Shown: piece by piece, positions 1,297 to 41,296 of the stretch
Position numbering within the stretch: position 1 is the stretch's first letter
How the letters are laid out: each line of letters begins with the position of its first letter
Source of the DNA: an uncultured Ignavibacteriaceae bacterium
Lineage (GTDB): Bacteria; Bacteroidota; Ignavibacteria; UBA10030; BY39
DNA length: 64,000 bases
NCBI GenBank assembly: GCA_964581995.1
Contig: CAZOQB010000003.1
Location: forward strand, 41,989 to 105,988
Direction: 5' to 3'
Made by a program: the position numbers and the translations under genes
The notes under the pieces: generated by a model
Database searches by the model: none
What the model was told of the DNA's origin: nothing
The model's input: only the letters and a program-made list of their open reading frames with translations

Positions 1297-2751
1297 ATGG
1301 AAAAGAAAAAGAAACTTACTCACAATTCTGGTGCACCTGTTGTTGACAATCAAAATGTTATGACAGCAGGTAAAAAGGGACCAATGCTTTTACAGGATGT
1401 ATGGTTTCTTGAAAAACTTGCTCACTTCGACAGGGAAGTAATTCCAGAGCGAAGAATGCATGCTAAAGGTTCCGGTGCTTATGGAACATTCACTGTTACA
1501 CATGATATCACAAAATACACAAGGGCAAAAATATTTTCACACGTTGGAAAAAAGACAGAATTATTTGTCAGGTTTTCAACTGTTGCTGGCGAACGTGGTG
1601 CAGCCGATGCGGAACGGGATATTCGAGGATTTGCTATAAAATTTTATACTGAAGAAGGCAACTGGGATTTAGTAGGAAACAATACACCAGTATTTTTTCT
1701 AAAAGATCCGCTGAAATTTCCTGATTTAAATCATGCAGTAAAGAGAGATCCGAAAACAAATTTACGAAGCGCGAAGAACAATTGGGATTTCTGGACATCA
1801 CTTCCCGAAGCTCTTCATCAAGTAACAATTACTATGAGCGACCGCGGAATACCTTATTCTTACCGCCATATGGATGGATTCGGGAGTCATACTTTTAGTT
1901 TTATTAATTCAAAAAACGAAAGGTATTGGGTTAAATTCCATTTAAAAACTCAACAGGGAATTAAAAATCTTACCGATCAGGAAGCAGAAGCAATAATTGC
2001 TAAAGATAGAGAAAGCCATCAAAAAGATTTATTTGAAAGCATTGAAAAAAAGGATTTCCCGAAATGGAAAATGTCCATACAAATAATGCCGGAGAAAGGT
2101 GCATCAAAGACTCCGTACAATCCATTCGACCTTACGAAAGTTTGGCCCCATAAAGATTATCCATTAATTGAGGTGGGAATTATGGAGCTTAACCGCAATC
2201 CGGAAAATTACTTTGCCGAAGTTGAACAGTCGGCTTTTAATCCGGCAAACATTGTTCCCGGTATTGGGTTCTCTCCCGATAAAATGCTTCAAGGACGTTT
2301 ATTTTCTTATGGTGATGCGCAAAGATATAGACTTGGAGTTAATCATCATTTGATTCCGGTTAATGCACCAAAATGTCCATATCATAGTTTTCACCGTGAT
2401 GGACAAATGAGAGTTGACGACAACCACGGCGCAACTCTCGGTTACGAACCTAATAGTTATGGCGAGTGGCAAGAACAACCTGAGTTTAAAGAACCACCCC
2501 TAAGTATCGAAGGTGCTGCAGACCATTGGAATCATAGAGAAGATACAGACTACTATTCACAAGCTGGAAATCTTTTCCGTCTGATGAATAAAACCCAACA
2601 ACAGGTTCTTTTTGAAAATACAGCAAGAGCTATGGGTGACGCTCCGAAGGAAATAAAAATTAGACATATAGGAAATTGTCTCAAAGCTGATGAAGCATAT
2701 GGAAAAGGAGTGGCTCAGGCACTTGGAATAAATGTAAGTGAAATAAAATAA
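1297..2751 (+). CDS. Monofunctional heme catalase, small-subunit type (484 aa)
   Basis: Strong catalase signatures ([35 protein letters not shown]-like core, [16 protein letters not shown]). Length is typical of clade-3 catalases. Confidence 0.95.
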
Positions 2752-27594: not shown

Positions 27595-28191
27595 ATGAAA
27601 CTTTATTCCTATGTAGTTGAACATGATAATGGATTTGCGCCAAATCCATATTTTAATGTCTGCTCTTTAGCGCATTGTAAATTTGGTAAAAAAAGAAAAA
27701 ATATCGTAGAAATGGCAAATGTTGACGATTGGATTATTGGTACTGGAGGTAGTAGTTCCAGAAGTGCTGGAAAAGGAAAATTAGTATATGCTATGCGTGT
27801 AGATGAGAAGTTGAGTCTGAAAGAATATTATAAAGATAAAAGGTTCAATTCAAAGAAACCAAATAATAGTAGTTTTGAAAATAGTAGGGGTGATAATAAA
27901 TCTAAATTCAAAAATGATATACAAAGATTTGTGCTATTATCATCTCATTATTATTATTTTGGTAATAAAGCGGTAAAAATTCCAACCCGATTTAGAAACC
28001 ACAAAACTTGTGCTCTTGAAAAAAAAGGTCCCGGCTATAAATCTTCCTTTGATGAAAAGTATATCTTAAATTTTGTTTTTTGGTTAGAGAAAAATTACTC
28101 TATTGGTATTATTGGTGTACCTTGTAATCTTGAAACAGAAGAAATGTATTTTACTGATAAGCTAAAAAAGAAAAATGGAGTTTGCAAATGA
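27595..28191 (+). CDS. Uncharacterised protein, first gene of an AT-rich cassette
   Basis: 198 aa. N-terminal motif YSYVVEHDNGFAPNPYFNVCSLAHC. Lys-rich. No family recognisable by eye. Confidence 0.6.
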   Translation: MKLYSYVVEHDNGFAPNPYFNVCSLAHCKFGKKRKNIVEMANVDDWIIGTGGSSSRSAGKGKLVYAMRVDEKLSLKEYYKDKRFNSKKPNNSSFENSRGDNKSKFKNDIQRFVLLSSHYYYFGNKAVKIPTRFRNHKTCALEKKGPGYKSSFDEKYILNFVFWLEKNYSIGIIGVPCNLETEEMYFTDKLKKKNGVCK

Positions 28192-28949
28192 AAGCACTTT
28201 TATTACGTGTTGGAATTGATAATGGCTATGGAGCTGTTACACCAATATTTGCTGATGATACTTATGAGTATATTTCTATCTATTATAAAAACAAAGTATC
28301 AATAGAAAAGAACGAAAAAAGAACATACAAAGATATTAAGTGCAAATATAGAGATAATGGCTTAGAGTTAAGAAATTTACAAGGATTTACAAATATTGCT
28401 TCATACCTTCCTAAAAAGCTCCATGATAAAATTATTCATCTTGACCCAGAATTTGAATCATTTACTTATGGTGAACCAGGCCGTCAAAAAAGGGCGGCTT
28501 TATTGAAATTGGAAAAAGGTGATTTATTAGTTTTTTATTTAGGAGGCAAGAATTGGGATGATAAAACGGACAGTGAATTAGGCGTTTATATCTTCAGTTA
28601 TTTTACAGTTAAAGAAGTTTATGATTGGAACAATTTAAGCAAAAAAGAACAAAAAGAACTATCAATAAATCAACTCTCTAAAAACGCTCATATAATAAGT
28701 TCAAAACCAAGAACAAACTTAGTTATAGTTAAAGGTGAATCTTCTAAAAGCAAAAAACTAAAATATTGTATTAAGATATCGGAACCCAATCAGAAAAGTA
28801 ATAATCCTTGTTATATTGCATCAAAGGAAATAAGAAAGTTACTTGGTATTAGGGAGTTTATTACACGTGCAGTTCCTATTTGGATTATGAATAAAAAATA
28901 TTTGCAGAATTTGCAAAGTTTACTACTATTAAAAACAATAAGTTTATAG
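28188..28949 (+). CDS. Uncharacterised protein, second gene of the cassette
   Basis: ATGA overlap with the upstream gene implies translational coupling. N-terminal LLLRVGIDNGYGAVTPIF motif. About 254 aa. Confidence 0.6.
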   Translation: MKALLLRVGIDNGYGAVTPIFADDTYEYISIYYKNKVSIEKNEKRTYKDIKCKYRDNGLELRNLQGFTNIASYLPKKLHDKIIHLDPEFESFTYGEPGRQKRAALLKLEKGDLLVFYLGGKNWDDKTDSELGVYIFSYFTVKEVYDWNNLSKKEQKELSINQLSKNAHIISSKPRTNLVIVKGESSKSKKLKYCIKISEPNQKSNNPCYIASKEIRKLLGIREFITRAVPIWIMNKKYLQNLQSLLLLKTISL

Positions 28950-30058: not shown

Positions 30059-30596
30059 TGGAAGCAGATCAACCACGAATACATATTGGCAGTGGTTCAG
30101 TGGATAATTAAATATTCTATCGTGTGTCTTCTAACAAGTGCCTCATACAAAAGGCATCTTCCGAAGGAATCACTTTGTGACCTTCGGGACTAAAATTAGG
30201 AGGGGGGACGTTTGCCTCCATGTCTATAAGAGTAGAGAAGTCGACTATCGAGTCGCAGACTCGTAGAGGGGATGAGTCCGAAACAAGTTTGCACTTGATT
30301 TGAGCTTTTTATAATATTTGCAGTGTATATTTTATGAATGCAAGCGATTGTATCACCGAGAAGTGTATCATAAATTGGAACATAATTTTAGTCATCAACT
30401 CGCTTGATAATATCCTATAGTGATGTGAATGATAACCCGTTGAAAGAATATAAAATACAATGAAAACAAAAAAACATACTAAATCTAACACACACGCTGC
30501 CTGCGTGTTAGACGGATTATATGGCAGTATAATTAATAGTTCGGCGGCAGAGCATATGTCGGCATTTGAAACGATAATTTGATAAGGAAATATACT

Positions 30597-31475
30597 ATGA
30601 AAAAAGTATCCAGTATTCCTATTATTTTGTCCATCTTGATTGCAACATTGGCAATAATCGTTGCTGGATTAGGGGTCTTTTGGCAAGGCGGAGGACAAAA
30701 ATCTGAATTTCTCACTCTGCGTGGTGAAACAGTAACGATACAAGGACATGGACTGTATCAACATGAAACGCTCTCTACCGCGGCGCAGGCAATAGCCCAA
30801 GATGTCGTTACTCTGCTGGTGGGGATTCCGCTATTAGTTATATCCATGATTTTGTTCAAAAAAGGAAGTTTGCAGGGTAAGTTGCTTCTATCGGGAACAT
30901 TAGCATATTTTCTATATACGTATGCGTCTTTTGCTTTTGGTGCGGCATACAACATCTTGTTTCTGGTATATGTGAGTTTATTCTCGCTTAGCCTATTCGC
31001 TTTCATCTTTGCGCTCATGGAAATAGATATTCCAACTTTGCCAAAGCATTTTTCGTCAGGTTTGCCTCATCGCACAATCGCTATATTCTTATTCGTTGTG
31101 GGGAGTTTCTTGTTATTAGCCTGGTTGGGGCGCATCGTACCAGCACTATTAGCAAATCAGCCGCCACTTGGATTGGACGCGTACACAACCCTAATTATTC
31201 AAGCATTAGATTTAGGGTTGGTTATGCCAATAGCCTTTCTGTCAGGTATCTTGCTCTGGAAGAAAAGCGCATGGGGCTATCTGCTTTCTTCAATTGTTCT
31301 AATTAAGGGAGTCACTTTAGCACTTGCAGTATCAGCAATGGCGGTAAACATGATTTTAGCGGGAGTGCAAGTCAGCACTGGTGAGTTAATAATGTTTCCA
31401 TTCATTGCCATAGTTAGCGGCGGGTTGACAGTTATACTTCTGAGAAATGTTACTGAGTTAGGAGACAAGAATTGA
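30597..31475 (+). CDS. Polytopic membrane protein, hypothetical
   Basis: Eight or more hydrophobic helices. Start taken at MKKVSS. Confidence 0.5.
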   Translation: MKKVSSIPIILSILIATLAIIVAGLGVFWQGGGQKSEFLTLRGETVTIQGHGLYQHETLSTAAQAIAQDVVTLLVGIPLLVISMILFKKGSLQGKLLLSGTLAYFLYTYASFAFGAAYNILFLVYVSLFSLSLFAFIFALMEIDIPTLPKHFSSGLPHRTIAIFLFVVGSFLLLAWLGRIVPALLANQPPLGLDAYTTLIIQALDLGLVMPIAFLSGILLWKKSAWGYLLSSIVLIKGVTLALAVSAMAVNMILAGVQVSTGELIMFPFIAIVSGGLTVILLRNVTELGDKN

Positions 31476-31792: not shown

Positions 31793-31880
31793 CCTTATAA
31801 ATCCCTACCACCACTCTCCCATTCTCATCAATAAAAAAACCCATCCTGGTTTTTTCATCAGAATGGGTTTTGATTTTTTT
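31793..31880 (-). terminator. ~85-bp terminator-associated repeat element, copy A
   Basis: Hairpin cccattctgatga..caggatggg followed by a T-run on the minus strand, directly 3' of the oxidase subunit I gene. About 80% identical to 49196..49280. Confidence 0.6.
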
Positions 31881-31889
31881 TTGGAGAAA

Positions 31890-33518
31890 TTACTTAGTCG
31901 ATGGAATCAAGTCCTTCGTTTTCAATTTCGATGGGGAAAAGATTCCTATTACTCCGTTCAATCCCACTGTCATAACTATATTATAGAAAAACGCGATGAA
32001 GGCAATCAGCAATAATGAGCCGGAAAGAGCCGCAAGTATCATATAGCTGTTGAACTCACCCTCGAAATACAAGGTACGTCTCAACATTCCCTGCAATCCT
32101 GCCATTCCCATGAAAGCGCCCATTCCAATTCCTCCGATCAGGTGCGCCCAGAAATGGAAACTTGCCAATTTATCGCTGTACAACTTTGCGCCGTTCGTGA
32201 GAATCGGTAACAACAGATAGATCGCGGAATATAATGTCATTGTCAGTCCTACTAATATTGCAACATGCACGTGCGGACCGACGATCCATTGCGTGTTATG
32301 GAGAATTCTATTCAAGCCCAAATCTGCCTGCATAATTCCGGCTGGAACTGCCAGAGCAAATCCCAATAATCCGCCGAGCAGGAATTTTAACGGGTGAGTC
32401 ATCTTGAGTGGTCTCGCACTCCAGAGAGTAACGAGCGTTATGAAAAATGCCAGACCTTGTGTAATAAGTTCGAAGGCGGTTACCATTTCACCCGAAACAA
32501 TTTTTAGAATTCCCGGCTGTGCCTGATCGGACATCAGATGATGCGACCATACTGTCCACGAGACAACCATCTCAATAAATAATGCGGCACGGGCAACATT
32601 CTCCATGAAAAGTTTTTTCCCCGTAATCATCGTCGCTAATAAATACCAGGTTCCGGCAACAAATATTAATACTAATCCATCGGCAATGAGGTCGAGTCCC
32701 CACCAAAACCAATTCTTGTATAACAACGCATCAACCGCAGAGTGTTTTAAACTGACTCCAAATAACTCCGCTACCATGTAAACAAGAATCAATACACCTG
32801 TAAAAATGATGATGCCCGCATTGAGGGCTGTGTCAACTGTGCCTCTTGCAATGGCGGCAACCGGTAAAGAAACTAAATGTTCTTTTTTCTTTTTTGAAAA
32901 TAGATTTTTCAATCCGGTTAAACCAAGCGCCGATTTCATCAATGCGCCGCCATTCTGTTTTTCCCATCCTTCAGGCGTATAGGTGATCGTCTTGAAAATA
33001 TTAATGACGAAAAATGTGGTGCCCACCATTACTATGGCAATACCGAAGATGAAGAAGGTTCCACCAACAACGCTGAACTGAGTAAAGTCTGCCGGCAGGG
33101 GCCAGTACAGTGTGTAGAGAGGACTGTAATGCGAAACAAATCCGGAGAACCAGAAAATAAAAGTTCCCACAGCAATTAACCATAATGTCCAATTGCCGAG
33201 TTTGATACTCCATAATGGTTTTTTCATAAGAAACGGAACGAGGAATAAGAACGCTCCGAAAACTATGGAGTAGGTCGAGCCAAAAATTCCGACTAACGGA
33301 TGTGCGGTTAGGATGGCAAAGAACTGTTCGTTTGAAACGAGCGGAAAAGGAGCGACCTCGTACAAACGCATGATCATTCCTTCGACAACAGCCAATCCGT
33401 AATAAAGCAAGCCCACAACGACGAATCGTAATGCAAGCTTCTGCATCGGCGTCAGGGTGTTCGGCTTAAATAAACCCTGCTCACCGTGTGTAAGTGTTTT
33501 TATAAAGCTCATATTCAT
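31890..33518 (-). CDS. Heme-copper oxidase superfamily subunit I-like protein (putative NO reductase or atypical oxidase)
   Basis: 542 aa, 12+ TM helices, His pairs at WSHHLM and GPHVHVAIL consistent with CuB and heme ligands. No CuA-bearing partner. Next to an Rrf2 regulator. Confidence 0.65.
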   Translation of the reverse strand: MNMSFIKTLTHGEQGLFKPNTLTPMQKLALRFVVVGLLYYGLAVVEGMIMRLYEVAPFPLVSNEQFFAILTAHPLVGIFGSTYSIVFGAFLFLVPFLMKKPLWSIKLGNWTLWLIAVGTFIFWFSGFVSHYSPLYTLYWPLPADFTQFSVVGGTFFIFGIAIVMVGTTFFVINIFKTITYTPEGWEKQNGGALMKSALGLTGLKNLFSKKKKEHLVSLPVAAIARGTVDTALNAGIIIFTGVLILVYMVAELFGVSLKHSAVDALLYKNWFWWGLDLIADGLVLIFVAGTWYLLATMITGKKLFMENVARAALFIEMVVSWTVWSHHLMSDQAQPGILKIVSGEMVTAFELITQGLAFFITLVTLWSARPLKMTHPLKFLLGGLLGFALAVPAGIMQADLGLNRILHNTQWIVGPHVHVAILVGLTMTLYSAIYLLLPILTNGAKLYSDKLASFHFWAHLIGGIGMGAFMGMAGLQGMLRRTLYFEGEFNSYMILAALSGSLLLIAFIAFFYNIVMTVGLNGVIGIFSPSKLKTKDLIPSTK

Positions 33519-33539
33519 TCTCCTTGTGTTTATGGAAAT

Positions 33540-34088
33540 TTAATCGGTTACTTCGACGGCGTCACGGACGATCATGTTAATTCCTTTCCATCCGGAATAT
33601 TCGGTCGAGCGAATTGAATAAACACCCGCACGGTCGAATTGCCAGAGGATATCGTTATTGTGTCCGGGAATTACCTGCATTTGGAAAACCATCGAATTAT
33701 CTTTTCGAAACAATCCGAAGCCGTATGTTAGATCATTTGAAGTTACATTGAATCTCACCTTTTCATTTGTTTTGATCATCAGTTTTTCCGAAGGAAGCGA
33801 GAACTGGTGATCTGCAACCGTGATGTTGAATTCCCGATCCGCTATAATCTCGGCGCGATTTAAATCCATCGGCTTCCATGGTATAGTTTCATGCGTAACG
33901 ATGTGTAACGAAACACCGATGACGACAAGTAATCCGACGAATGAATAAAAAAGAGCCGGTTTAATTTGATTGGTACCTCTGTCTCTTGTGACCTTATATG
34001 CAAACCAGCCCATCGTTGCCATAATCGCAAGGACATAGAACGTGTAGGCGATTGTTTGCCCGGTAAGCACTGTGTTTGAATCTATCAT
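33540..34088 (-). CDS. Heme-copper oxidase subunit II-like (cupredoxin-fold) protein lacking CuA cysteines
   Basis: Two N-terminal TM helices plus a beta-rich domain (SNDLTYGFGL..MQVIPGHNN) resembling the subunit II fold. No Cys residues in the CuA position. Start placed at MIDSN. Confidence 0.5.
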   Translation of the reverse strand: MIDSNTVLTGQTIAYTFYVLAIMATMGWFAYKVTRDRGTNQIKPALFYSFVGLLVVIGVSLHIVTHETIPWKPMDLNRAEIIADREFNITVADHQFSLPSEKLMIKTNEKVRFNVTSNDLTYGFGLFRKDNSMVFQMQVIPGHNNDILWQFDRAGVYSIRSTEYSGWKGINMIVRDAVEVTD

Positions 34089-34109
34089 AGTAGCGCCCTT
34101 TATATTGGT

Positions 34110-34119
34110 TATACGTATA
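34110..34119. promoter_or_regulatory. Perfect palindrome TATACGTATA in the promoter region of the oxidase genes (candidate Rrf2 operator)
   Basis: Seen directly between the Rrf2 stop and the subunit II start, followed by a ctacc-acaa-ggtag hairpin. Confidence 0.3.
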
Positions 34120-34159
34120 TATCCTACCACAAGGTAGCATTTAAAAATAAAAAAAACAA

Positions 34160-34564
34160 TTACTTCATTTTCTTTTTCAAGTCGGTTAATTTTGTTGATG
34201 AGAGAACATTTATCAGATTCATCTGCGAATCTGCCCAGACATCGTGCATAGCACAGGGATTTTCTAATACACATTCACCGAATCCGAAAAAACATGTGGG
34301 TGCGGTGGGGAATCCTTCCACAGCTTTAATAATATCGGAGAGATAAATTTTATCCGCTTTTTTTGCGAACTTATATCCGCCATATTTCCCGCGCTCACTT
34401 TTGATTAAGCCATTTTTCGATAGAACAGTTAATAACCATTGCAAATATTTTTTCGGAATTTTAAGCTGCTTATGGATATAGTCGGAAGAGTATTTTTCTT
34501 TTTCTTCCACAGCCATGAAAGTAAGTATCCGCAGAGCGTATTCCGTCGTTTTTGAGAATGTCAT
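34160..34564 (-). CDS. Rrf2-family transcriptional regulator with a three-Cys cluster-binding motif (IscR/NsrR-like)
   Basis: N-terminal wHTH (TEYALRIL..). Motif C-x6-C-x5-C (TCFFGFGECVLENPC). Confidence 0.8.
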   Translation of the reverse strand: MTFSKTTEYALRILTFMAVEEKEKYSSDYIHKQLKIPKKYLQWLLTVLSKNGLIKSERGKYGGYKFAKKADKIYLSDIIKAVEGFPTAPTCFFGFGECVLENPCAMHDVWADSQMNLINVLSSTKLTDLKKKMK

Positions 34565-35159: not shown

Positions 35160-36263
35160 ATGAGTCGTATAGAAGTAAATATTAACCCAAGCGTGTTACA
35201 ATGGGCAAGAGAAGAAGCCGGTTACGATCCTTCTGAAATTGCCGCAAAAGTAGAAGTCCCTACGGAAAAATACAATACGTGGGAGCAGAAGGGTGAAAAA
35301 GTGCCTCTTGGGAAATTAAAAAATATTGCCAATTATTATAAAAGGCAATTAGCTGTGTTTTTCCTCCCTGAAGTCCCAAAGAAAATCGTCAAGCCGAAAG
35401 ATTTTCGGAATGTCATAACTGCAAAGAGTAAACTCTCCAAAAAAGTTCTTTTAGTAATGCGCGATGTTACATATTTTCGTCAAACCGCACTTGAAATAAA
35501 AGGAGAAGGATACTGGAAAGATCGCTACAGTTGGATAGCTGAAGTTGACGCCAACAATAAAAAATCCGATGTGATTGCAGGATGGCTTCGTGAGAAATTA
35601 AATATCAGCGTTGAAGAGCAGCTCCGCTGGAAAACATCCAATGAGGCGTATCGTACGTGGAGAAGTGCGGTAGAAAACCAATTGGGAATTTTGATTTTCC
35701 AATTTCCGATGCCACTAAAAGAAGTGCAGGGTTTTTGTTTTACCGATGCGTATCCTTACTCAATCATTGTTAATTCCAATCATTCTTATACTGGTCGTAT
35801 CTTTACAATCTTTCACGAATTGGCTCATATCATAAACCATAATTCCGGCATTTGTTTGTGGGATGATGTTATGGAAAACCAAAATGAAGAATGGGAATGC
35901 AATTCGATTGCAGGAAATTTTCTTGTTCCAAAGAATATACTTCAATCCACAGACGATCTTAAAGAAATTCAGACATACGCCAACAAGTTTAAAATTAGTC
36001 CGGAAGCATATCTGCGTAGATTAAAAGAAGAAAAGGCAATCAGTTCCGTAAAATTCTTTACACTGCTGGATCAAATAAAAGCATCGTATCCCGCAATTCC
36101 ACCTAAGAAAATAATAATTAAGCCTGAAGTGAAAAGCAGGGCGAGCAGAGGAGAGACATTTTACACTCTTGTATTAGATGCTCTGAATCAAAATAGAATA
36201 TCTTATACACAAGCATCCGGAATGCTCGATCTGAATATCAGCCGGGTAATGCGTGAAGCATAG
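35160..36263 (+). CDS. HTH (XRE-like) + ImmA/IrrE-family zinc metallopeptidase
   Basis: N-terminal HTH-like region. HEXXH motif (FHELAHIINH). 367 aa. Confidence 0.75.
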   Translation: MSRIEVNINPSVLQWAREEAGYDPSEIAAKVEVPTEKYNTWEQKGEKVPLGKLKNIANYYKRQLAVFFLPEVPKKIVKPKDFRNVITAKSKLSKKVLLVMRDVTYFRQTALEIKGEGYWKDRYSWIAEVDANNKKSDVIAGWLREKLNISVEEQLRWKTSNEAYRTWRSAVENQLGILIFQFPMPLKEVQGFCFTDAYPYSIIVNSNHSYTGRIFTIFHELAHIINHNSGICLWDDVMENQNEEWECNSIAGNFLVPKNILQSTDDLKEIQTYANKFKISPEAYLRRLKEEKAISSVKFFTLLDQIKASYPAIPPKKIIIKPEVKSRASRGETFYTLVLDALNQNRISYTQASGMLDLNISRVMREA

Positions 36264-36777
36264 CTCGCAAAATATCTATTGCCTTGATACGAGCGCTTTA
36301 GTAACTATGCACCGATACTATCCTATACGAATCCTGCCTGATTTATGGAACAATCTTGAAGAATTATTTAAGAAACGCCGGGTACGTTCCCACGAATTTG
36401 TGTACGATGAAATAGTTCCGTCAACCGGAACAAAAGATGATTTAGCAAAACTTGTTTCGAAGCATAAAGTCTGTTTCCAAGCAATCACAAAAAAACAAGC
36501 GCAAGTTGTACCTGAAATTCTTTCTCTCTTTCCACATCTAATTGATCCGAGAAGCAAGAAAGATCAAGCTGATCCCTGGATTATTGCGATGGTTGTTGAA
36601 TTAATGGAAGAGACAAGTCTATTCGGGAAGGAATCTGAATTTGTTGTTGTCAGCACCGAGAGTGAATCGAGTCCAAATAAAATTCCCGCTGTTTGCAAGC
36701 ATTACAACGTAAGGCATATGAATCTTTTTGAATTTTATGAAGATAATGGATGGAGTTTTTCATTATCAATAAAATGA
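36253..36777 (+). CDS. DUF4411-family (PIN-like) protein, partner of the ImmA/IrrE gene
   Basis: 174 aa. N-terminal YCLDTSALV (PIN-like Asp). Overlaps the upstream gene by 11 nt. Confidence 0.6.
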   Translation: MKHSSQNIYCLDTSALVTMHRYYPIRILPDLWNNLEELFKKRRVRSHEFVYDEIVPSTGTKDDLAKLVSKHKVCFQAITKKQAQVVPEILSLFPHLIDPRSKKDQADPWIIAMVVELMEETSLFGKESEFVVVSTESESSPNKIPAVCKHYNVRHMNLFEFYEDNGWSFSLSIK

Positions 36778-36918: not shown

Positions 36919-37641
36919 ATGGCAGTTAACTCATCCATAGAATGGACCGAATCTACGTGGAACCCGGTTACCGGTTGCAACAAGATAAGTCCGGGATGCA
37001 AGCATTGTTATGCAGAACGGATGGCGCATCGCTTGCAGCGAATGGGACAGGCGAACTATGCTAACGGGTTCAAGCTGACGATGCATGAACACGTTGTAGA
37101 ACTTCCGCTCCATTGGAAGAAGCCGCAAACGATCTTTGTGAATTCGATGAGCGATTTGTTCCACGAAAATGTTCCGCTTGAATTCATCCGGAAAGTTTTT
37201 GATGTGATGCGACGCGCTCACTGGCATCGTTTTCAAATCCTAACGAAACGCTCGGAGCGACTGCGAGAACTAAGTTCACTGCTTACGTGGACGCCAAATA
37301 TCTGGATGGGTGTCAGCGTAGAGAATCAAGAGTACACGCACCGCATAGACGATCTAAGAGCGACAGGTGCACAGGTGAAGTTTCTTTCGCTTGAGCCGCT
37401 GATGGGTCCTCTCCGCAAACTGAACCTTAAAAAGATCGATTGGGTGATTGTTGGCGGCGAATCGGGTCCGCACGCGCGACCGATGGATGAAACGTGGGTG
37501 CTCGATATACGTGACCAATGTGATAGTGCTAATGTCCCGTTCTTCTTTAAGCAATGGGGTGGTACGAACAAGAAGAAAGCCGGCAGATTGCTCGAAGGTA
37601 AGACGTGGGATGAGATGCCGAGATTGAGGAAGGCGGGATAA
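36919..37641 (+). CDS. Phage protein Gp37/Gp68 family (DUF5131)
   Basis: N-terminal [30 protein letters not shown] is highly characteristic of this family. It contains a Cx6Cx2C motif. Confidence 0.8.
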
Positions 37642-37691: not shown

Positions 37692-38816
37692 ATGCATATA
37701 CGAAATAATGTAATCACACTCCTCTTGGTTCTGTTTATCGCCGGATGCAGTAAGTATGACAAAGAAACTATTAAAGTTGGAAGAATACTTCCACTAACTG
37801 GTCCCGCAGCATCTTATGGACAAAGCGAACAGAAAGGTACGGCACTTGCCTTAGATGAAATAAACACCAAGGGTGGAATTGATAATAAAAAACTTGAAAT
37901 CATTTTTGAGGATGATAAGTGCGATGTTAAAGAAGGTGTGAATGCGATGAAGAAGCTTGTAGAGGTTGATAAGGTACCCGCAGTTCTTGGTGCGACTTGT
38001 AGTGGTGTAACTCTTGCTATATCACCGATTGCAAATGAAAAGCAAGTACTTTTACTTTCCCCTCTCTCTTCGCTTGCCGAAATAACCAACGCAGGTCCTT
38101 TTGTTTTCAGGGTGATGCCTTCCGATGCATTCCAAAGCAGAATATTAGCTGAGTGGGTTTATTCAGAGGGGTACACAAAAATTGCTATGCTTTCGATAAA
38201 CAATGCTTGGGGAAAGGGGGTCTCAGATGAATTTCAGAAATATTACAGTCAACTTGGAGGTGTTATTACAATAACTGAAATGTGCAAAGAGGGAGACAGA
38301 GATTTTCGTATCCAATTGGGCAAAATTAAAGAATCAAAACCGACTGCAATCTTTTGTCCGTCGATGCCCAAGGAGGGTGGGCTTATTTTAAAACAATTAA
38401 AAGAACTCGGAATAAAAGTGCCCATCTACGGTGCAGATGCATGGAGTGTAAAAGAACTACTAGATGAAGCAGGAAATGCAGCAGAAGGTGTGATGTACAC
38501 TTACCCAGCTCAGTTTACTGGTGCAGAGTATCAAGAATTCGCTACTTCATTCAAGAAAAAATACAGTCAAGATCCAGATGTCAATGCCGCAGGTGCATAT
38601 GACGCCCTTAAAATTTTATCCGTGTGTATTAAAAACGTTCTGGACCAAAAACTTCCTTTAACGGGCGGCAACCTAAAGATCGAAATGTCCAAGATAAAGG
38701 ATTTCAAGGGTGCAACAGGGACAACAACATTTGATGAGAATGGTGACTCAATCGCAAAGACTTTCGAAAAGATGATAATTCGAAATGGAAGTAGAGTTAA
38801 GTATGAAAAACAATAG
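37692..38816 (+). CDS. ABC transporter substrate-binding lipoprotein, LivK-like (Peripla_BP_6 family)
   Basis: Lipobox (LFIAGCS). Type-I periplasmic binding fold with branched-chain amino-acid binding-protein-like motifs. Confidence 0.8.
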   Translation: MHIRNNVITLLLVLFIAGCSKYDKETIKVGRILPLTGPAASYGQSEQKGTALALDEINTKGGIDNKKLEIIFEDDKCDVKEGVNAMKKLVEVDKVPAVLGATCSGVTLAISPIANEKQVLLLSPLSSLAEITNAGPFVFRVMPSDAFQSRILAEWVYSEGYTKIAMLSINNAWGKGVSDEFQKYYSQLGGVITITEMCKEGDRDFRIQLGKIKESKPTAIFCPSMPKEGGLILKQLKELGIKVPIYGADAWSVKELLDEAGNAAEGVMYTYPAQFTGAEYQEFATSFKKKYSQDPDVNAAGAYDALKILSVCIKNVLDQKLPLTGGNLKIEMSKIKDFKGATGTTTFDENGDSIAKTFEKMIIRNGSRVKYEKQ

Positions 38817-38819
38817 GAA

Positions 38820-39917
38820 TTGGGATTACCAAATAGAATGTTGACTCCGCCTCCCTTAATACGAGGCTCCTTTTTTCGGAGTGATGAGATTGAACGCGTA
38901 CGAGTAAACCATACATTACTTTCGGTTTCGCTTCTTCTTTCCAATGCATGCAATCTCCGCTGTATGTACTGCTATCGTGATGCGGGTGCACAAGACACAC
39001 AATTATTTATATTGAAAGAATGGAAGGAAGTATTAACTCAAGTTAAAGCATTAGGAGCAAGGAATGTTTGGATACCAGGATCGGGAGAACCAATGCTGGA
39101 TCCTGTTTTTTATTATGCTGGAAATTTCCCTTTGATTGAGCTTGCCAATTCTCTTGGATTATCGGTTACTTTCTTTACGAATGGAACCCTTCTTACGAAG
39201 CAACTCGTAAGGCTAATAAAGCAATATGATGTTTCCGTTATCACAAAGCTTAATAGTTTTAATCCTGCAGTGCAAGATTATCTCGCCGGGAAGTCGAACG
39301 TATTTGAGAAAGTGTGGCGTGGTCTAACTTTACTAATTGAGGCCGGGTTTGCGGACAACCATTCATCGAGACTTGGCATCGATACTGTAATTGTTGCTCA
39401 AAACTATGATGAAATCCCAGAGATGTTCAAATTTTGTCGAGATAGGAATATCATTCCTTATATTACTGCTAATCTCCATGGTGGTCGTGCTTGTATGAAT
39501 AACCAGTTGGATGTTTCAAAGAATAAGCTGAGCGTACTATTCGAACAACTATTACGTATTGACCAAGAAGAATATGGTTTTACTTGGTTCCCTTCTCCTC
39601 CAATTGTAGCCTCACAGTGTAAAAAGCTTTTCTACGATATCGTGGTAGATTCCACAGGCGAGGTCTCTCTGTGCCCAGGGATTCAACTACCGATTGGTAA
39701 TATCCGTGATAATAAATTAAAGGACTTGATGCAGGCATCGGATTTATTCCAAAAGATTCGTAATCTGCCAAATAAACTCGAAGGCAAATGCCGATCCTGT
39801 CTTTCAACGGAATGTGGATATGGATGTCGGCTGGAAGCTTGGGCGCATGGTAATCTCTTTGGAGATGATCCGATGTGCTGGCATGAAATTAATACCACAA
39901 CAGTTGCCGTACAATAG
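38820..39917 (+). CDS. Radical SAM enzyme with a C-terminal SPASM domain
   Basis: CNLRCMYC (CX3CX2C). C-terminal CX2CX5CX3C (CRSCLSTECGYGC) preceded by CPG. Confidence 0.8.
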   Translation: MGLPNRMLTPPPLIRGSFFRSDEIERVRVNHTLLSVSLLLSNACNLRCMYCYRDAGAQDTQLFILKEWKEVLTQVKALGARNVWIPGSGEPMLDPVFYYAGNFPLIELANSLGLSVTFFTNGTLLTKQLVRLIKQYDVSVITKLNSFNPAVQDYLAGKSNVFEKVWRGLTLLIEAGFADNHSSRLGIDTVIVAQNYDEIPEMFKFCRDRNIIPYITANLHGGRACMNNQLDVSKNKLSVLFEQLLRIDQEEYGFTWFPSPPIVASQCKKLFYDIVVDSTGEVSLCPGIQLPIGNIRDNKLKDLMQASDLFQKIRNLPNKLEGKCRSCLSTECGYGCRLEAWAHGNLFGDDPMCWHEINTTTVAVQ

Positions 39918-39925
39918 TAGAAACC

Positions 39926-41296
39926 ATGAAAATTCAACTTGTAAAAGCACCTACTCAAAATACAGGCATGCCTGAGCATGACTGGTATACACCTTTAAAT
40001 CTAATTTGGCTTGCGAATTATCTCTGCCAATATGATTATGAAGTTGAAATACTCGATGGTCAGATTCTTACGATTGAAGAAATCCTAAGTAGAATTTCCG
40101 CTGATCTTGTAGGCGTAAGTTTTGATATTTTATCGATTGACAAATTTGATCAAATAGTTTATCAAGCAAAGAGCAGGGGATGCTTTACTTTGGCTGGTGG
40201 TCATCTTGCAACCGCACTCGGAGAACGACTCTTAATTGACAACCCAAATCTTGATGCTGTGGCTTGCTACGATGGAGAAGAAGCACTTCTTGGAGTTGTT
40301 CGTACAGTCGAGAAAAAGAAAAAACTATCAAAAGAGATCCCAAACCTTATTTTTCGGCAAAATGGGACTATTGTTAAAACTATCGTCCGAGATGTGAACT
40401 TATCAGATATACCATTACCGAAGAGGGATGTGGGAGGTATTCAACTTGATGATTATATAAAAAATTTTCAAGAGACAAAAAAAAGATTAGGTTTCGATTT
40501 CAATTATAATAGACCAACAAACACATACTCACACAAAGGTTGCCTGTTCCGCACGAATGGTAACGGTTGTAGTTTCTGTTCCAGAGTAGATCAGAAATTT
40601 AGATTAAAACCTGCTAAAAGGGTATACGAAGAGTACAAATATTTAGAGAGGACATTTGACATAGACTACATATCCGACTTTAGCGATAGCTGGATTTATA
40701 CTCCTTTCGTGAGGGATTTGGTAGAACAATATGAACGGAAAGGGAAGCTGAGTGCATCGATTCGCGTATACGGTGACGTAAGAATGGTGACCGCAGACAA
40801 TGCGAGAATGATGCGACAAATCGGGGTTAATACAGTTCTCCTAGGCATTGAGTCCGGGAATGAAGATGTTCTCAAGAAGAATGGAAAACCAACAACAAGA
40901 AAACAAATTCTCGCAGCGGTTGACATCTTAGCTGCTAACGATATGAAGATTGCAGATGCTTATGTCCTGGGTTTAATCGGTGAGACACGTGAAAGTGTCA
41001 ATGATACAATTTCATTAGCAAAAGAAATTAGAGAGCGATGTAAAACAGAAATTTCGTATTGGAATCTAATGACGCCTCTTCCCGGGAGCAGGATTTGGAA
41101 CATTTTAGTACACGAAAAATATGATCTGTATCCAGATGGAGTATTTCATATTGATACTGAATACCTAGAACGTGTAAGCATTAAAAAATTCACACAACTT
41201 GGTATCCATGGATATGAATATTTAGTAGACAGACGAGAAGAGATGCTGTCTTTATCAAGAATTGCGAGCTCTGAGTTTGTTACAGCCAATAGATAG
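39926..41296 (+). CDS. B12-binding-domain radical SAM protein (class B-like) with a non-canonical Cys motif
   Basis: N-terminal Rossmann-like B12-binding region. Cys motif CLFRTNGNGCSFC (CX8CX2C) in place of CX3CX2C. 456 aa. Confidence 0.65.
   Translation: MKIQLVKAPTQNTGMPEHDWYTPLNLIWLANYLCQYDYEVEILDGQILTIEEILSRISADLVGVSFDILSIDKFDQIVYQAKSRGCFTLAGGHLATALGERLLIDNPNLDAVACYDGEEALLGVVRTVEKKKKLSKEIPNLIFRQNGTIVKTIVRDVNLSDIPLPKRDVGGIQLDDYIKNFQETKKRLGFDFNYNRPTNTYSHKGCLFRTNGNGCSFCSRVDQKFRLKPAKRVYEEYKYLERTFDIDYISDFSDSWIYTPFVRDLVEQYERKGKLSASIRVYGDVRMVTADNARMMRQIGVNTVLLGIESGNEDVLKKNGKPTTRKQILAAVDILAANDMKIADAYVLGLIGETRESVNDTISLAKEIRERCKTEISYWNLMTPLPGSRIWNILVHEKYDLYPDGVFHIDTEYLERVSIKKFTQLGIHGYEYLVDRREEMLSLSRIASSEFVTANR

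Follow-up and report, generated by a model that had tools for sequence, protein, structure and literature searches.

A candidate gNOR-type nitric oxide reductase linked to an Rrf2 regulator and a probable operator in an uncultured Ignavibacteriaceae bacterium

Here we describe a three-gene locus of an uncultured Ignavibacteriaceae bacterium, for which the evidence favours a gNOR-type nitric oxide (NO) reductase of the heme-copper superfamily encoded behind the gene for an Rrf2-family regulator. The locus is reasonably likely to form a self-contained module for NO removal, in which the gNOR-type enzyme would be controlled by an Rrf2 repressor acting on a conserved dyad. The analysis confirms and extends the published gNOR prediction and reports no new kind of system. 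The genes lie within a 64-kb window (the whole stretch of DNA analysed, 64,000 nucleotides) and are co-directional on the minus strand, in the order Rrf2, subunit II and subunit I, followed by a terminator; this three-gene order had been given correctly in an earlier note on the same DNA. The features are as follows.

34160..34564, minus strand: Rrf2-family transcription regulator, 134 aa (Pfam Rrf2, 2.2e-31; TIGR00738, 5.7e-31)
34120..34141, no strand assigned: conserved dyad, probable Rrf2 operator before subunit II/I (motif scan of related loci)
34110..34119, no strand assigned: TATACGTATA palindrome, unique in the 64-kb window and not conserved
33540..34088, minus strand: subunit II, CuA-less cupredoxin, 182 aa (ba3-type profile matches)
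31890..33518, minus strand: subunit I, heme-copper, 542 aa (Pfam COX1, 6e-55)
31831..31869, minus strand: intrinsic terminator 3' of subunit I (11-bp stem and U7 run)

The true start of subunit II is the ATG at 34088, as its homologues begin with MIDSN or MVDSN; a mechanically called open reading frame from 34274 was rejected on these grounds and because it overlaps the Rrf2 gene. The terminator folds as RNA at -23.5 kcal/mol (z = -3.4 against shuffles), and its 10-nt loop had kept it out of a pattern scan. No further nitrogen-cycle gene was found within the 64-kb window, and no isc or suf genes lie near the locus.

The AlphaFold2 model of subunit I (pLDDT 86, pTM 0.90) has 12 transmembrane helices, and Foldseek aligned it at TM 0.76 with subunit I of E. 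coli bo3 and of further A-family enzymes, with a sequence identity of 17-19% to the bo3 and aa3-600 quinol oxidases. The subunit I family profile gave 52 matches in the PDB (E<=1e-3; 38-93 bits), which are A/B-family and cbb3 (A, B, C oxidase) chains and include no chain named NO reductase; aa3-600 and bo3 were the best matches in both profile (92.9 bits) and fold. The heme ligands H73, H416 and H418 are retained together with the H326/H327 pair, in line with the HH and HxH pairs that had been noticed in this protein. The scores against the NCBIfam models CtaD (96 vs 671 bits), CcoN (56 vs 583 bits) and CyoB (51 vs 1020 bits) were far below the respective cut-offs, and no NorB-type model was matched.

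The helix-VI motif of subunit I is WWGLDLIAD, whereas canonical enzymes have W..GHP.VY. Across the family alignment WWGLD(276)LIAD(280)G is invariant, the oxidases in the PDB showing W..GHPEVY at the same place; the helix-VI His and the cross-linked Tyr are thus both missing family-wide, and Asp276 and Asp280 stand at or next to their positions. This loss, which we regard as the decisive feature, had been overlooked in the earlier note. An ungapped count from the conserved LY...FW motif puts D276 on the His and D280 on the Tyr, whereas HMMER and MAFFT open a one-residue gap, by which L275 (not D276) falls on the His column and A279 on His+4. The D276 column holds His in the nearest outgroup family, P0194, within the same WWGL context. 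From sequence alone the helix-VI register is ambiguous; either way, the His is absent and an Asp lies at or beside its position.

The residues invariant in a 61-sequence alignment of subunit I are H73, Y267, K268, N269, W272, W273, G274, L275, D276, A279, D280, G281, H326, H327, H407, H416, H418, R480 and R481, the last two of which correspond in the alignment to the RR in the GMPRR motif of the oxidases. Its invariant tyrosines are Y135, Y138, Y267, Y292, Y434 and Y484, and Y267, which lies at His-9, corresponds to the LY motif ordinarily present in A-family enzymes. The earlier note had suggested aligning subunit I and inspecting its active site and proton channels, and this alignment (to aa3-600 and bo3) revealed, besides the missing helix-VI His and Tyr, that the D-channel Glu is replaced by I278 and the K-channel Lys by A357 (consensus T). 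Another invariant polar stripe, formed by S342, T347, E350 and T353, runs along TM8.

Subunit II consists of two N-terminal helices and a ba3-type cupredoxin domain without a CuA site. Its family matches were weak (Pfam COX2, 19 bits, below cut-off; NCBIfam CoxB, 1.7e-8), and in the PDB its profile matched only Thermus thermophilus ba3 subunit II and CuA-domain chains (best 1e-5). In the profile alignment with T. thermophilus ba3, the CuA ligands H114, C149, C153 and H157 are replaced by Y122, S161, S165 and G169, respectively, and M160 is the sole ligand retained (M172). No conserved cysteine was found across 78 subunit II sequences, so that the CuA-less cupredoxin subunit II proposed from the first reading is borne out. 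A subunit II homologue adjoins subunit I in 79 of 84 related loci.

The gNOR family of the heme-copper superfamily has been described by Sievert et al. 2008, Hemp & Gennis, and Murali et al. 2024 (PMC11214002). It is defined by an Asp in place of one active-site His and by a cupredoxin subunit II without CuA, with quinol use suspected (PMC11214002), and appears in Table A4 of PMC8756737 with active-site residue D and 0 proton channels. All of these features occur in the present enzyme, which has a heme-copper fold with the heme His, an Asp for His, no Tyr, a CuA-less subunit II and no D or K channel. The evidence therefore favours its assignment as a gNOR-type NO reductase, a membership judged by features and not by phylogeny or by comparison with reference gNORs, and it sides with the initial suggestion of a non-cNOR/qNOR enzyme of the sNOR/eNOR/gNOR kind. 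The likeness further covers the Asp at the Tyr site, the relation of subunit II to ba3, and the occurrence in both Bacteria and Archaea, in habitats that are sulfidic or anoxic; the NCBI name is the generic "cytochrome c oxidase subunit I". The literature names Sulfurimonas, Sulfurovum, Persephonella and Ca. Methylomirabilis as gNOR hosts, whereas the clade found here belongs to Ignavibacteria and Bacteroidales. No description of an Rrf2 linkage or operator for gNOR was found in the literature examined. A preprint also gives gNOR a His-to-Glu heme-ligand change, which is not seen in subunit I here.

Comparison with other members of the superfamily sets the enzyme apart. The B-family-derived NO reductases bNOR (qCuANOR, Bacillus azotoformans) and eNOR (Rhodothermus marinus), whose activity has been measured, resemble it in having two subunits, a described B-type oxidase origin, no active-site Tyr and a cupredoxin-type subunit II. 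However, they keep three His, an Asn/Gln at the Tyr site, CuA and a K-type channel (PMC11214002), whereas the enzyme here lacks one of the three His as well as CuA and does not conserve the K-channel positions. The cNOR/qNOR (NorB) enzymes share the predicted reaction and a carboxylate-containing non-heme site, but they are C-family relatives with three His and a Glu at FeB and with a cytochrome c subunit (NorC) or a fused N-terminal domain. This class was rejected in view of the absence of any NO-reductase-named PDB chain and of any NorB NCBIfam match, the partner being a cupredoxin and not a cytochrome c. The bo3 and aa3-600 quinol oxidases likewise have a CuA-less subunit II, and the invariant E46 of subunit I stands, in the alignment, where cytochrome bo3 has its quinol-site Asp; they differ in their full His3-Tyr CuB site, D/K channels and O2 reduction. 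The helix-VI CuB His and the cross-linked Tyr are reported in all O2-reducing heme-copper oxidases (PMC11214002). With both residues gone family-wide and the CtaD, CcoN and CyoB scores so low, an A/B/C-type O2 reductase was rejected; subunit I lies outside these O2 reductases with intact channels, and it was a place among them that the earlier note had named as speaking against its proposal. An O2-reducing oxidase is very unlikely because the His/Tyr loss and the CuA-less subunit II match the gNOR definition.

In the mechanism that we propose, the low-spin heme would be bound by H73/H418 and the high-spin heme by H416, while the non-heme metal site would comprise H326, H327 and Asp276, with Asp280 in place of the cross-linked Tyr. 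Such a two-His and carboxylate site would suit iron better than copper and would not provide the His-Tyr radical required for O2 reduction, so that NO reduction (2 NO + 2 e- + 2 H+ -> N2O + H2O) is the predicted reaction. Since subunit II has no CuA, menaquinol would most likely deliver the electrons, at a point within subunit I, and since the canonical D-/K-channel residues are absent, a detoxifier is likelier than a proton pump. On the regulatory side, an Rrf2 dimer carrying an Fe-S cluster (Cys3 and His) would bind the dyad, AATGCTAC-N6-GTAGCATT, and keep subunit II/I repressed; NO, or a different signal that damages the cluster, would release the protein. We infer both NO sensing and NO reduction from family features and from the gene neighbourhood.

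Close relatives of the enzyme (78-98% identity) are present in at least 553 species genomes, mostly of Ignavibacteria and Bacteroidales, and 494 of 1.8 billion representative proteins match the subunit I family at E<=1e-3. Subunit I is 81-87% identical between genes whose third-codon-position GC is 0.25 and 0.96, and relatives at 40-48% come from MAGs labelled Chloroflexota, Actinobacteria, Thermoprotei and Methanomethylicia. About 10 loci have genes for DUF438/hemerythrin/PAS_10 and DUF1858 proteins next to the enzyme genes, with several arrangements among them (the genome scan covered the 80 closest loci); nrfHA and a NapH-like gene stand beside them in two loci (L001 and L015). In six Rrf2-less loci, a Crp-DUF6448-ABM-DUF2871 unit, whose DUF2871 is weakly NnrS-like, lies upstream. 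Swapping between Rrf2-type and Crp/Fnr-type regulators is a pattern of NO-detoxification genes (PMC1274295), and the hemerythrin/DUF438, DUF1858, nrfHA and Crp-type neighbours fit such a role. In about 9-12 Bacteroidales loci, genes for TsuA/YeeE-like (thiosulfate-transporter-like) halves, rhodanese and DsrE-like proteins adjoin the enzyme genes.

In a rival reading the same proteins would perform other chemistry, the heme/2-His/2-Asp site turning over a different small oxidant or a substrate linked to sulfur, in hosts that are strict anaerobes. Candidates would be the removal of O2 or H2O2 with no His-Tyr cofactor involved, N2O turnover, or a reaction associated with sulfide, with Rrf2 reporting Fe-S or sulfur status and not NO. 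We regard this as unlikely, although several observations speak for it. The hosts in the wider family resemble strict anaerobes; most belong to fermentative or anaerobic lineages, among them archaea labelled Methanomethylicia and Thermoprotei, and no nir, nar or nos genes were found near their enzyme genes. Hemerythrin genes recur in the neighbourhood, and hemerythrins bind O2 as well as NO. The closest PDB matches of Rrf2 are CymR and IscR, not NsrR. NO reduction by gNOR is itself a published prediction, and gNORs are reported chiefly from sulfidic habitats (PMC11214002); about nine Bacteroidales loci with sulfur genes leave room for a sulfur-linked role. On the contrary, the characterised Tyr-less heme-copper enzymes with a carboxylate site, namely cNOR, qNOR, bNOR and eNOR, are all NO reductases (PMC11214002). 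The sulfur adjacency is found mostly in one syntenic Bacteroidales lineage. The sulfur genes are separated from subunit I by 50 to 590 nt and are not preceded by an Rrf2 dyad, whereas the DUF438-hemerythrin/DUF1858, nrfHA and Crp-type neighbours are more widely scattered.

For the preferred module, the second component is the regulator. Among the 75 related loci with at least 650 nt of upstream sequence, 47 have an Rrf2 homologue directly upstream and co-directional. The C-x6-C-x5-C motif pointed out previously continues as C-x6-C-x5-C-x2-H, a pattern kept in 46 of the 47 Rrf2 genes adjoining the enzyme and probably forming an Fe-S cluster site. The protein scored below the cut-off of every Rrf2 equivalog model (IscR, NsrR, RirA and CymR), reaching 63.5 bits against 207.6 for IscR (TIGR02010) and 44 against 182 for NsrR (NF008240), the latter lower than the IscR, SufR-like and RirA scores. 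Its description as NsrR/IscR-like holds for the three cysteines; the ligand pattern looks nearer to IscR than to NsrR, and neither equivalog cut-off is reached. It resembles NsrR and IscR in the winged-helix Rrf2 fold, the three C-terminal cysteines, the neighbouring NO-related target gene and a palindromic operator that is AT-rich and has ATGC...GCAT as its outer arms. IscR differs in its spacing (C-x5-C-x5-C-x2-H) and in the isc/suf linkage not seen here.

The conserved dyad has the consensus AATGCTAC-N6-GTAGCATT and reads AATGCTACCTTGTGGTAGGATA on the gene strand here, with its end about 31 nt ahead of the start of subunit II; no second match occurs in the 64-kb window. In related loci totalling 946 kb, 37 of 39 matches take one of two fixed positions: they lie at -45 to -56 relative to the ATG of subunit II, or they end 2-6 nt ahead of the ATG of Rrf2. 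The dyad is present in 32 of the 47 loci with an adjacent Rrf2 gene versus 0 of the 28 without (Fisher 6e-10). The spacer RNA shows no stability beyond that of shuffles (z = 0.06). A protein-binding site is favoured over an RNA hairpin because the right arm of the Bacteroidales sites (GTATCATT) is conserved yet non-complementary. The dyad at 34120-34141 is thus a probable Rrf2 operator for subunit II/I. The earlier note had reported a hairpin (CTACC-TTGT-GGTAG, at about 34125-34138) and a palindrome between these genes. Both are real; the hairpin proved to be the core of the conserved dyad, while the palindrome TATACGTATA at 34110-34119 (0.03 expected by chance) is not conserved, being TATATAAGTACA in L005, whose subunit I is 98% identical, and absent from the other loci. 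It may belong to an AT-rich stretch, resembling a -10 element, on the downstream side of the operator.

An NO reductase might also be paired with an Rrf2 protein that does not sense NO, that is, an IscR/RsrR-like regulator of redox or Fe-S status or a constitutive autorepressor, and its expression would then follow the iron-sulfur or redox state. To this we assign a low probability. It agrees with the C-x2-H ending as in IscR, with which C98, C104 and H107 align (the first Cys being offset by one), and with the low NsrR score. Glu8, which we take to be the counterpart of the Asp8 cluster ligand in Streptomyces NsrR, is not conserved within the clade. The dyad also differs from IscR type 1/2 sites. 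Compared with the NsrR consensus gATGyAT-N5-ATrCATc (PMC1274295), it has the ATGC half-site start in common, but its half-site is otherwise unlike and its spacing is different. An NsrR-like function would still be compatible with the sub-cut-off score and the differing operator. Against a regulator blind to NO stand the lack of nearby isc/suf genes and its tie to the enzyme in 47 of 75 loci from two phyla; moreover, Fe-S Rrf2 proteins generally react with NO. Other lineages place the enzyme genes behind Crp/Fnr-type regulators and boxes, as in NO regulons (PMC1274295).

With similarly little probability, the clade and its relatives could represent not a plain NO reductase but a heme/2-His/2-carboxylate membrane enzyme of strict anaerobes with an undescribed activity, such as the reduction of an oxidant in a sulfide-tolerant or sulfur-linked manner, or the quinol-driven detoxification of a species other than NO. 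Control would then lie with Rrf2 proteins of a new Cys3-His sensor subfamily that has an operator of its own. The alternative offered in the earlier note, an ordinary bo3-like O2-reducing quinol oxidase under an IscR-like regulator, has in its favour the CuA-less subunit II, E46 and the best PDB matches, and is highly improbable given the family-wide loss of the CuB His and Tyr, the I278 and A357 replacements and the CyoB score.

Enzymes of the gNOR type are predicted N2O sources, and the recently identified NOR families together account for about half of NOR abundance in nature (Murali et al., PMC11214002). The 22-bp dyad and the Rrf2 gene offer experimental handles, and the compact operon suits heterologous expression. 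The hosts are usually scored as non-denitrifiers, some of them carrying nrfHA beside the enzyme, and the high conservation across GC extremes and so many species genomes points to a strongly selected function.

The three genes that the earlier note had described as co-directional all lie on the minus strand, in the order Rrf2, subunit II and subunit I:

34564-34160, minus strand: Rrf2 gene, 134 aa (Pfam/NCBIfam Rrf2, 2e-31)
34159-34089: spacer between the Rrf2 and subunit II genes, 71 nt
34088-33540, minus strand: subunit II-like gene, 182 aa (weak COX2/CoxB scores, Pfam/NCBIfam)
33539-33519: spacer between the subunit II and subunit I genes, 21 nt, with AAGGAG
33518-31890, minus strand: subunit I-like gene, 542 aa (COX1, 6e-55, Pfam/NCBIfam)
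31869-31831, minus strand: intrinsic terminator 3' of the subunit I gene (z = -3.4)

A pattern scan found no terminator between the Rrf2 and subunit II genes. A 244-aa ORF from 34274, which overlaps the Rrf2 gene, was rejected as subunit II because 77 homologues begin with MIDSN or MVDSN, that is, at 34088. The flanking genes (Nmad2/Nmad3, epimerase, IrrE/DUF4411, DUF5131 and ABC-type binding protein) show no link to nitrogen metabolism, and no further nitrogen-cycle genes were found among the scanned window ORFs. The nucleotide-modification-associated Nmad2 and Nmad3 genes lie side by side (27595-28949, plus strand), an IrrE/M78 peptidase-DUF4411 pair is located at 35160-36777 and a DUF5131 gene at 36919-37641; these look like a mobile or defence-type patch surrounding the module. 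Just past the terminator and convergent to subunit I, a plus-strand gene (30579-31475) encodes a 298-aa protein that crosses the membrane several times and has no match in Pfam. The window also carries a monofunctional catalase gene (1297-2751, plus strand; Pfam Catalase, 1e-193), 29 kb from the module, in a host that looks anaerobic by its other features, as well as a periplasmic binding protein gene (37692-38816) followed by genes for a radical SAM/SPASM protein and a B12-binding radical SAM protein (38820-41296, plus strand), which may form a peptide-modification cluster.

Subunit I was aligned with 20 and then 61 family members, of which eight are close relatives (74-88% identity to the window protein) and the others share 40-48%; the named sources include MAGs labelled Chloroflexota, Actinobacteria, Bacteroidetes, Thermoprotei and Methanomethylicia. 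The HH and HxH pairs pointed out earlier in the 542-aa protein are invariant (H326/H327 in helix VII; H416/H418 in helix X), as are H73 in helix II and R480 and R481, the counterparts of RR in the oxidase GMPRR motif. The family therefore keeps both hemes and, of the three histidines at the non-heme metal, two. Helix VI reads LFW.WGHPEVY in solved oxidases (PDB profile alignment) and Y267-K-N-x-F/Y-W272-W273-G-L-D276-x-x-A-D280-G in the whole family, from which both the canonical His and Tyr are absent, whichever register is used. HMMER and MAFFT, by opening a one-residue gap, place L275 in the His column, and BLOSUM scoring shows no clear preference for either register. We favour D276 in place of the His and D280 in place of the Tyr, because an ungapped count from the shared LY...FW motif lands there, because P0194, the nearest outgroup family, has WWGL-H in the same columns with an Asn four residues on, and because D276 and H326 are 50 residues apart, as are bovine H240 and H290. 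With both registers, two invariant aspartates, one helical turn apart, fall at or beside the canonical His/Tyr positions. For comparison, the ba3 helix-VI string is WWTGHPIVY; ba3 was not the top match when the PDB was searched with P0248. In alignment to PDB oxidases, the D-channel Glu corresponds to I278 and the K-channel Lys to A357. Another odd subunit I-like family, P0237, has Arg/Gln in the helix-VI His/Tyr columns and HWQH replacing HH.

The AlphaFold2 model of subunit I (pLDDT 86, pTM 0.90) has twelve transmembrane helices. Its fold matches subunit I of bo3 and of other A-family enzymes with a TM score of about 0.76 at 15-20% identity. Against the PDB, the family profile scored 93 bits for aa3-600, 64-67 bits for ba3 and 38-47 bits for cbb3, also matching bo3 and mitochondrial COX1; no chain named NO reductase was among the matches. 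Every NCBIfam equivalog score was far under its cut-off, and no more than 494 of 1.84 billion representative proteins matched at E<=1e-3, with identity dropping to 24-31% beyond the enzyme's own clade. These weak scores and few matches indicate a distinct heme-copper family, and the same distances rule out a variant oxidase or cNOR/qNOR as its identity. P0194, at first a candidate sNOR, proved to be an unnamed family of just seven proteins reading WWGLH...N; after its own members, it matches the present family best.

When the PDB was searched with a profile of 34 subunit II sequences, all matches were to T. thermophilus ba3, either its subunit II or constructs of the CuA domain (best 1e-5). 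At the CuA ligand positions, Tyr122, Ser161, Ser165 and Gly169 are substitutions and Met172 is retained, and no cysteine is conserved across 78 sequences, in agreement with the CuA-less cupredoxin first proposed. Since the single-sequence structure model was unusable (pLDDT 48), the cupredoxin assignment rests on the profile matches; by these, subunit II is predicted to be a B-family-type cupredoxin unable to bind CuA. In four of the 40-48% relatives (L087-L090), subunit II is shorter (140-143 aa), and the 34-35-aa ORF ahead of it may encode a transmembrane helix that has become separated.

Of the 75 related loci with sufficient upstream sequence, 47 carry a Rrf2 homologue immediately upstream in the same orientation. 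The C-x6-C-x5-C spacing reported for the window protein is conserved across this clade and extends to C-x6-C-x5-C-x2-H, with Glu8 being variable. The last two Cys and the His align with C98, C104 and H107 of E. coli IscR, and the protein passes none of the equivalog models. Concerning the palindrome and hairpin described between the regulator and enzyme genes, only the latter held up in an alignment of the Rrf2-subunit II spacers: the palindrome TATACGTATA (34110-34119) is unconserved, with the related locus L005 carrying TATATAAGTACA there, and was rejected as operator, while the hairpin beside it forms the centre of a dyad that is conserved, AATGCTAC-N6-GTAGCATT. Allowing up to three mismatches, 39 dyad matches were found in 946 kb of related loci, 37 of them at two fixed places. 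The Ignavibacteria-type dyad, including the window copy (34120-34141; no second copy in the window), starts 45-56 nt upstream of the subunit II ATG. The Bacteroidales-type dyad ends 2-6 nt ahead of the Rrf2 ATG (L024, L026, L027, L032, L034, L037-L041, L044, L049, L058, L063-L066, L075 and L080), which implies either that the transcript has no leader or a very short one, or that the operator sits within the mRNA 5' end; three loci have both positions occupied. The dyad was present in 32 of the 47 loci with an adjacent Rrf2 gene versus none of the 28 without (Fisher 6e-10). The spacer RNA is no more stable than shuffles (z = 0.06), and Bacteroidales dyads have a right arm that is conserved yet non-complementary (GTATCATT), which speaks against an RNA hairpin or attenuator. 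Given the linkage to Rrf2, the fixed positions, the ordinary RNA stability and the non-complementary arm, we read the dyad as a protein operator rather than an RNA structure. The outer arms of the dyad, ATGC...GCAT, also occur in the NsrR consensus gATGyAT-N5-ATrCATc (PMC1274295), whose half-site and spacing are different.

One scan of species-representative genomes showed that at least 553 encode a close relative; 80 of these loci were retained (78-98% identity over the best segment), mostly from Ignavibacteria/Melioribacteraceae and Bacteroidales MAGs. L005, 98% identical and labelled "uncultured Chlorobiaceae", is probably the same species as the window. Subunit I proteins remain 81-87% identical to that of the window while the third-codon-position GC of their genes spans from about 0.25 (Ignavibacteria) to about 0.95 (contigs labelled Vicinamibacterales, Acidobacteriota and Aminicenantes), matching the flanking DNA each time (L083, L084, L031, L067, L019 and L004/L014 versus L001, L015 and L057). 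This pattern indicates that purifying selection is very strong and that the gene has spread across phyla; MAG mis-binning is unable to account for the gene composition.

The RIC/ScdA/YtfE proteins, which repair iron centres, have two domains, to which DUF1858 and hemerythrin domains are related. In about ten loci, a DUF438/hemerythrin/PAS_10 protein and a DUF1858 protein adjoin subunits II/I in varying arrangements, the pair being divergent from Rrf2 in L002/L003 and 22-136 nt 3' of subunit I in L001, L036, L042, L054 and L073. The enzyme genes are adjoined by nrfHA and a NapH-like ferredoxin gene in L001 and L015. Six Rrf2-less Ignavibacteria loci (L010, L016, L018, L021, L030 and L055) have genes for a Crp/Fnr-type regulator, DUF6448, an ABM-like protein and DUF2871 (152 aa, with weak NnrS/COX1 N-terminal similarity) directly upstream and co-directional, which looks like an alternative control and accessory set. 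A TGAY-N4-RTCA box occurs within 250 nt upstream in 5 of the 28 Rrf2-less loci, at about ten times the background density. The same exchange of a Rrf2 regulator for a Crp/Fnr-type one ahead of the same genes has been described for NO-detoxification regulons (PMC1274295). Loci of the wider family repeatedly feature hemerythrin genes and regulators of the Crp or ArsR type, and no nir, nar or nos genes were seen near them. About nine largely syntenic Bacteroidales loci carry genes for two TsuA/YeeE-like sulfur or thiosulfate transporter halves, two rhodaneses and a 155-aa unknown protein, located 3' of subunit I (L027, L037, L048, L049, L059 and L068) or upstream on the opposite strand (L036, L042 and L054), and DsrE-like genes occur in L033, L034, L057 and L060. 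No Rrf2 dyad precedes the TsuA/YeeE, rhodanese or DsrE-like genes, and their link to the enzyme genes may be either functional or mere shared synteny.

The published family gNOR, a predicted nitric oxide reductase, is the sole heme-copper family with an active-site His replaced, by Asp; its subunit II is a cupredoxin without CuA residues, quinol use is possible, and it occurs in Bacteria and Archaea with a bias to sulfidic habitats (Murali et al., PMC11214002). Table A4 of PMC8756737 (modified from Hemp and Gennis) also gives D as the gNOR active-site residue, with no proton channels. The module enzyme shares all of these features. A His-to-Glu heme-ligand change ascribed to gNOR in one preprint is absent from the window family. 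Judged by published features rather than by the sequences of Sulfurimonas, Sulfurovum, Persephonella and M. oxyfera DAMO_1118-1119, the enzyme likely belongs to gNOR, the alternative being an unclassified sister family with the same features; a tblastn search of plasmids for reference gNOR gave no match. The earlier call of an unconventional NO reductase is supported, in that these features are those of a predicted, uncharacterised NOR family.

The same proteins might instead reduce another oxidant or act on a sulfur-linked substrate in strict anaerobes, which we consider unlikely. Slightly less probable still, and compatible with an NO reductase, is that Rrf2 tracks Fe-S or redox status rather than NO specifically, a reading to which the IscR-like ligands lend themselves and against which stands the regulator exchange. 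An ordinary O2-reducing quinol oxidase would suit the A-family fold but not the altered helix VI and channels, and is very unlikely.

From the observed gene content, substitutions, invariance and linkages, we infer the metal, electron donor and substrate of an NO reductase under Rrf2 control, as well as the signal and the direction of regulation. The holo-Rrf2 dimer would bind the dyad, whose end lies about 31 nt before subunit II begins, and block transcription until NO or another cluster-damaging agent frees it. The membrane enzyme then formed by subunits II and I would contain two hemes plus a non-heme metal, probably iron, on H326, H327 and D276, with D280 close by; menaquinol would donate the electrons for reduction of NO to N2O, probably with no proton pumping. 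Beyond the assignment to a NOR family, these results add a regulator, its putative operator and a conservation pattern.
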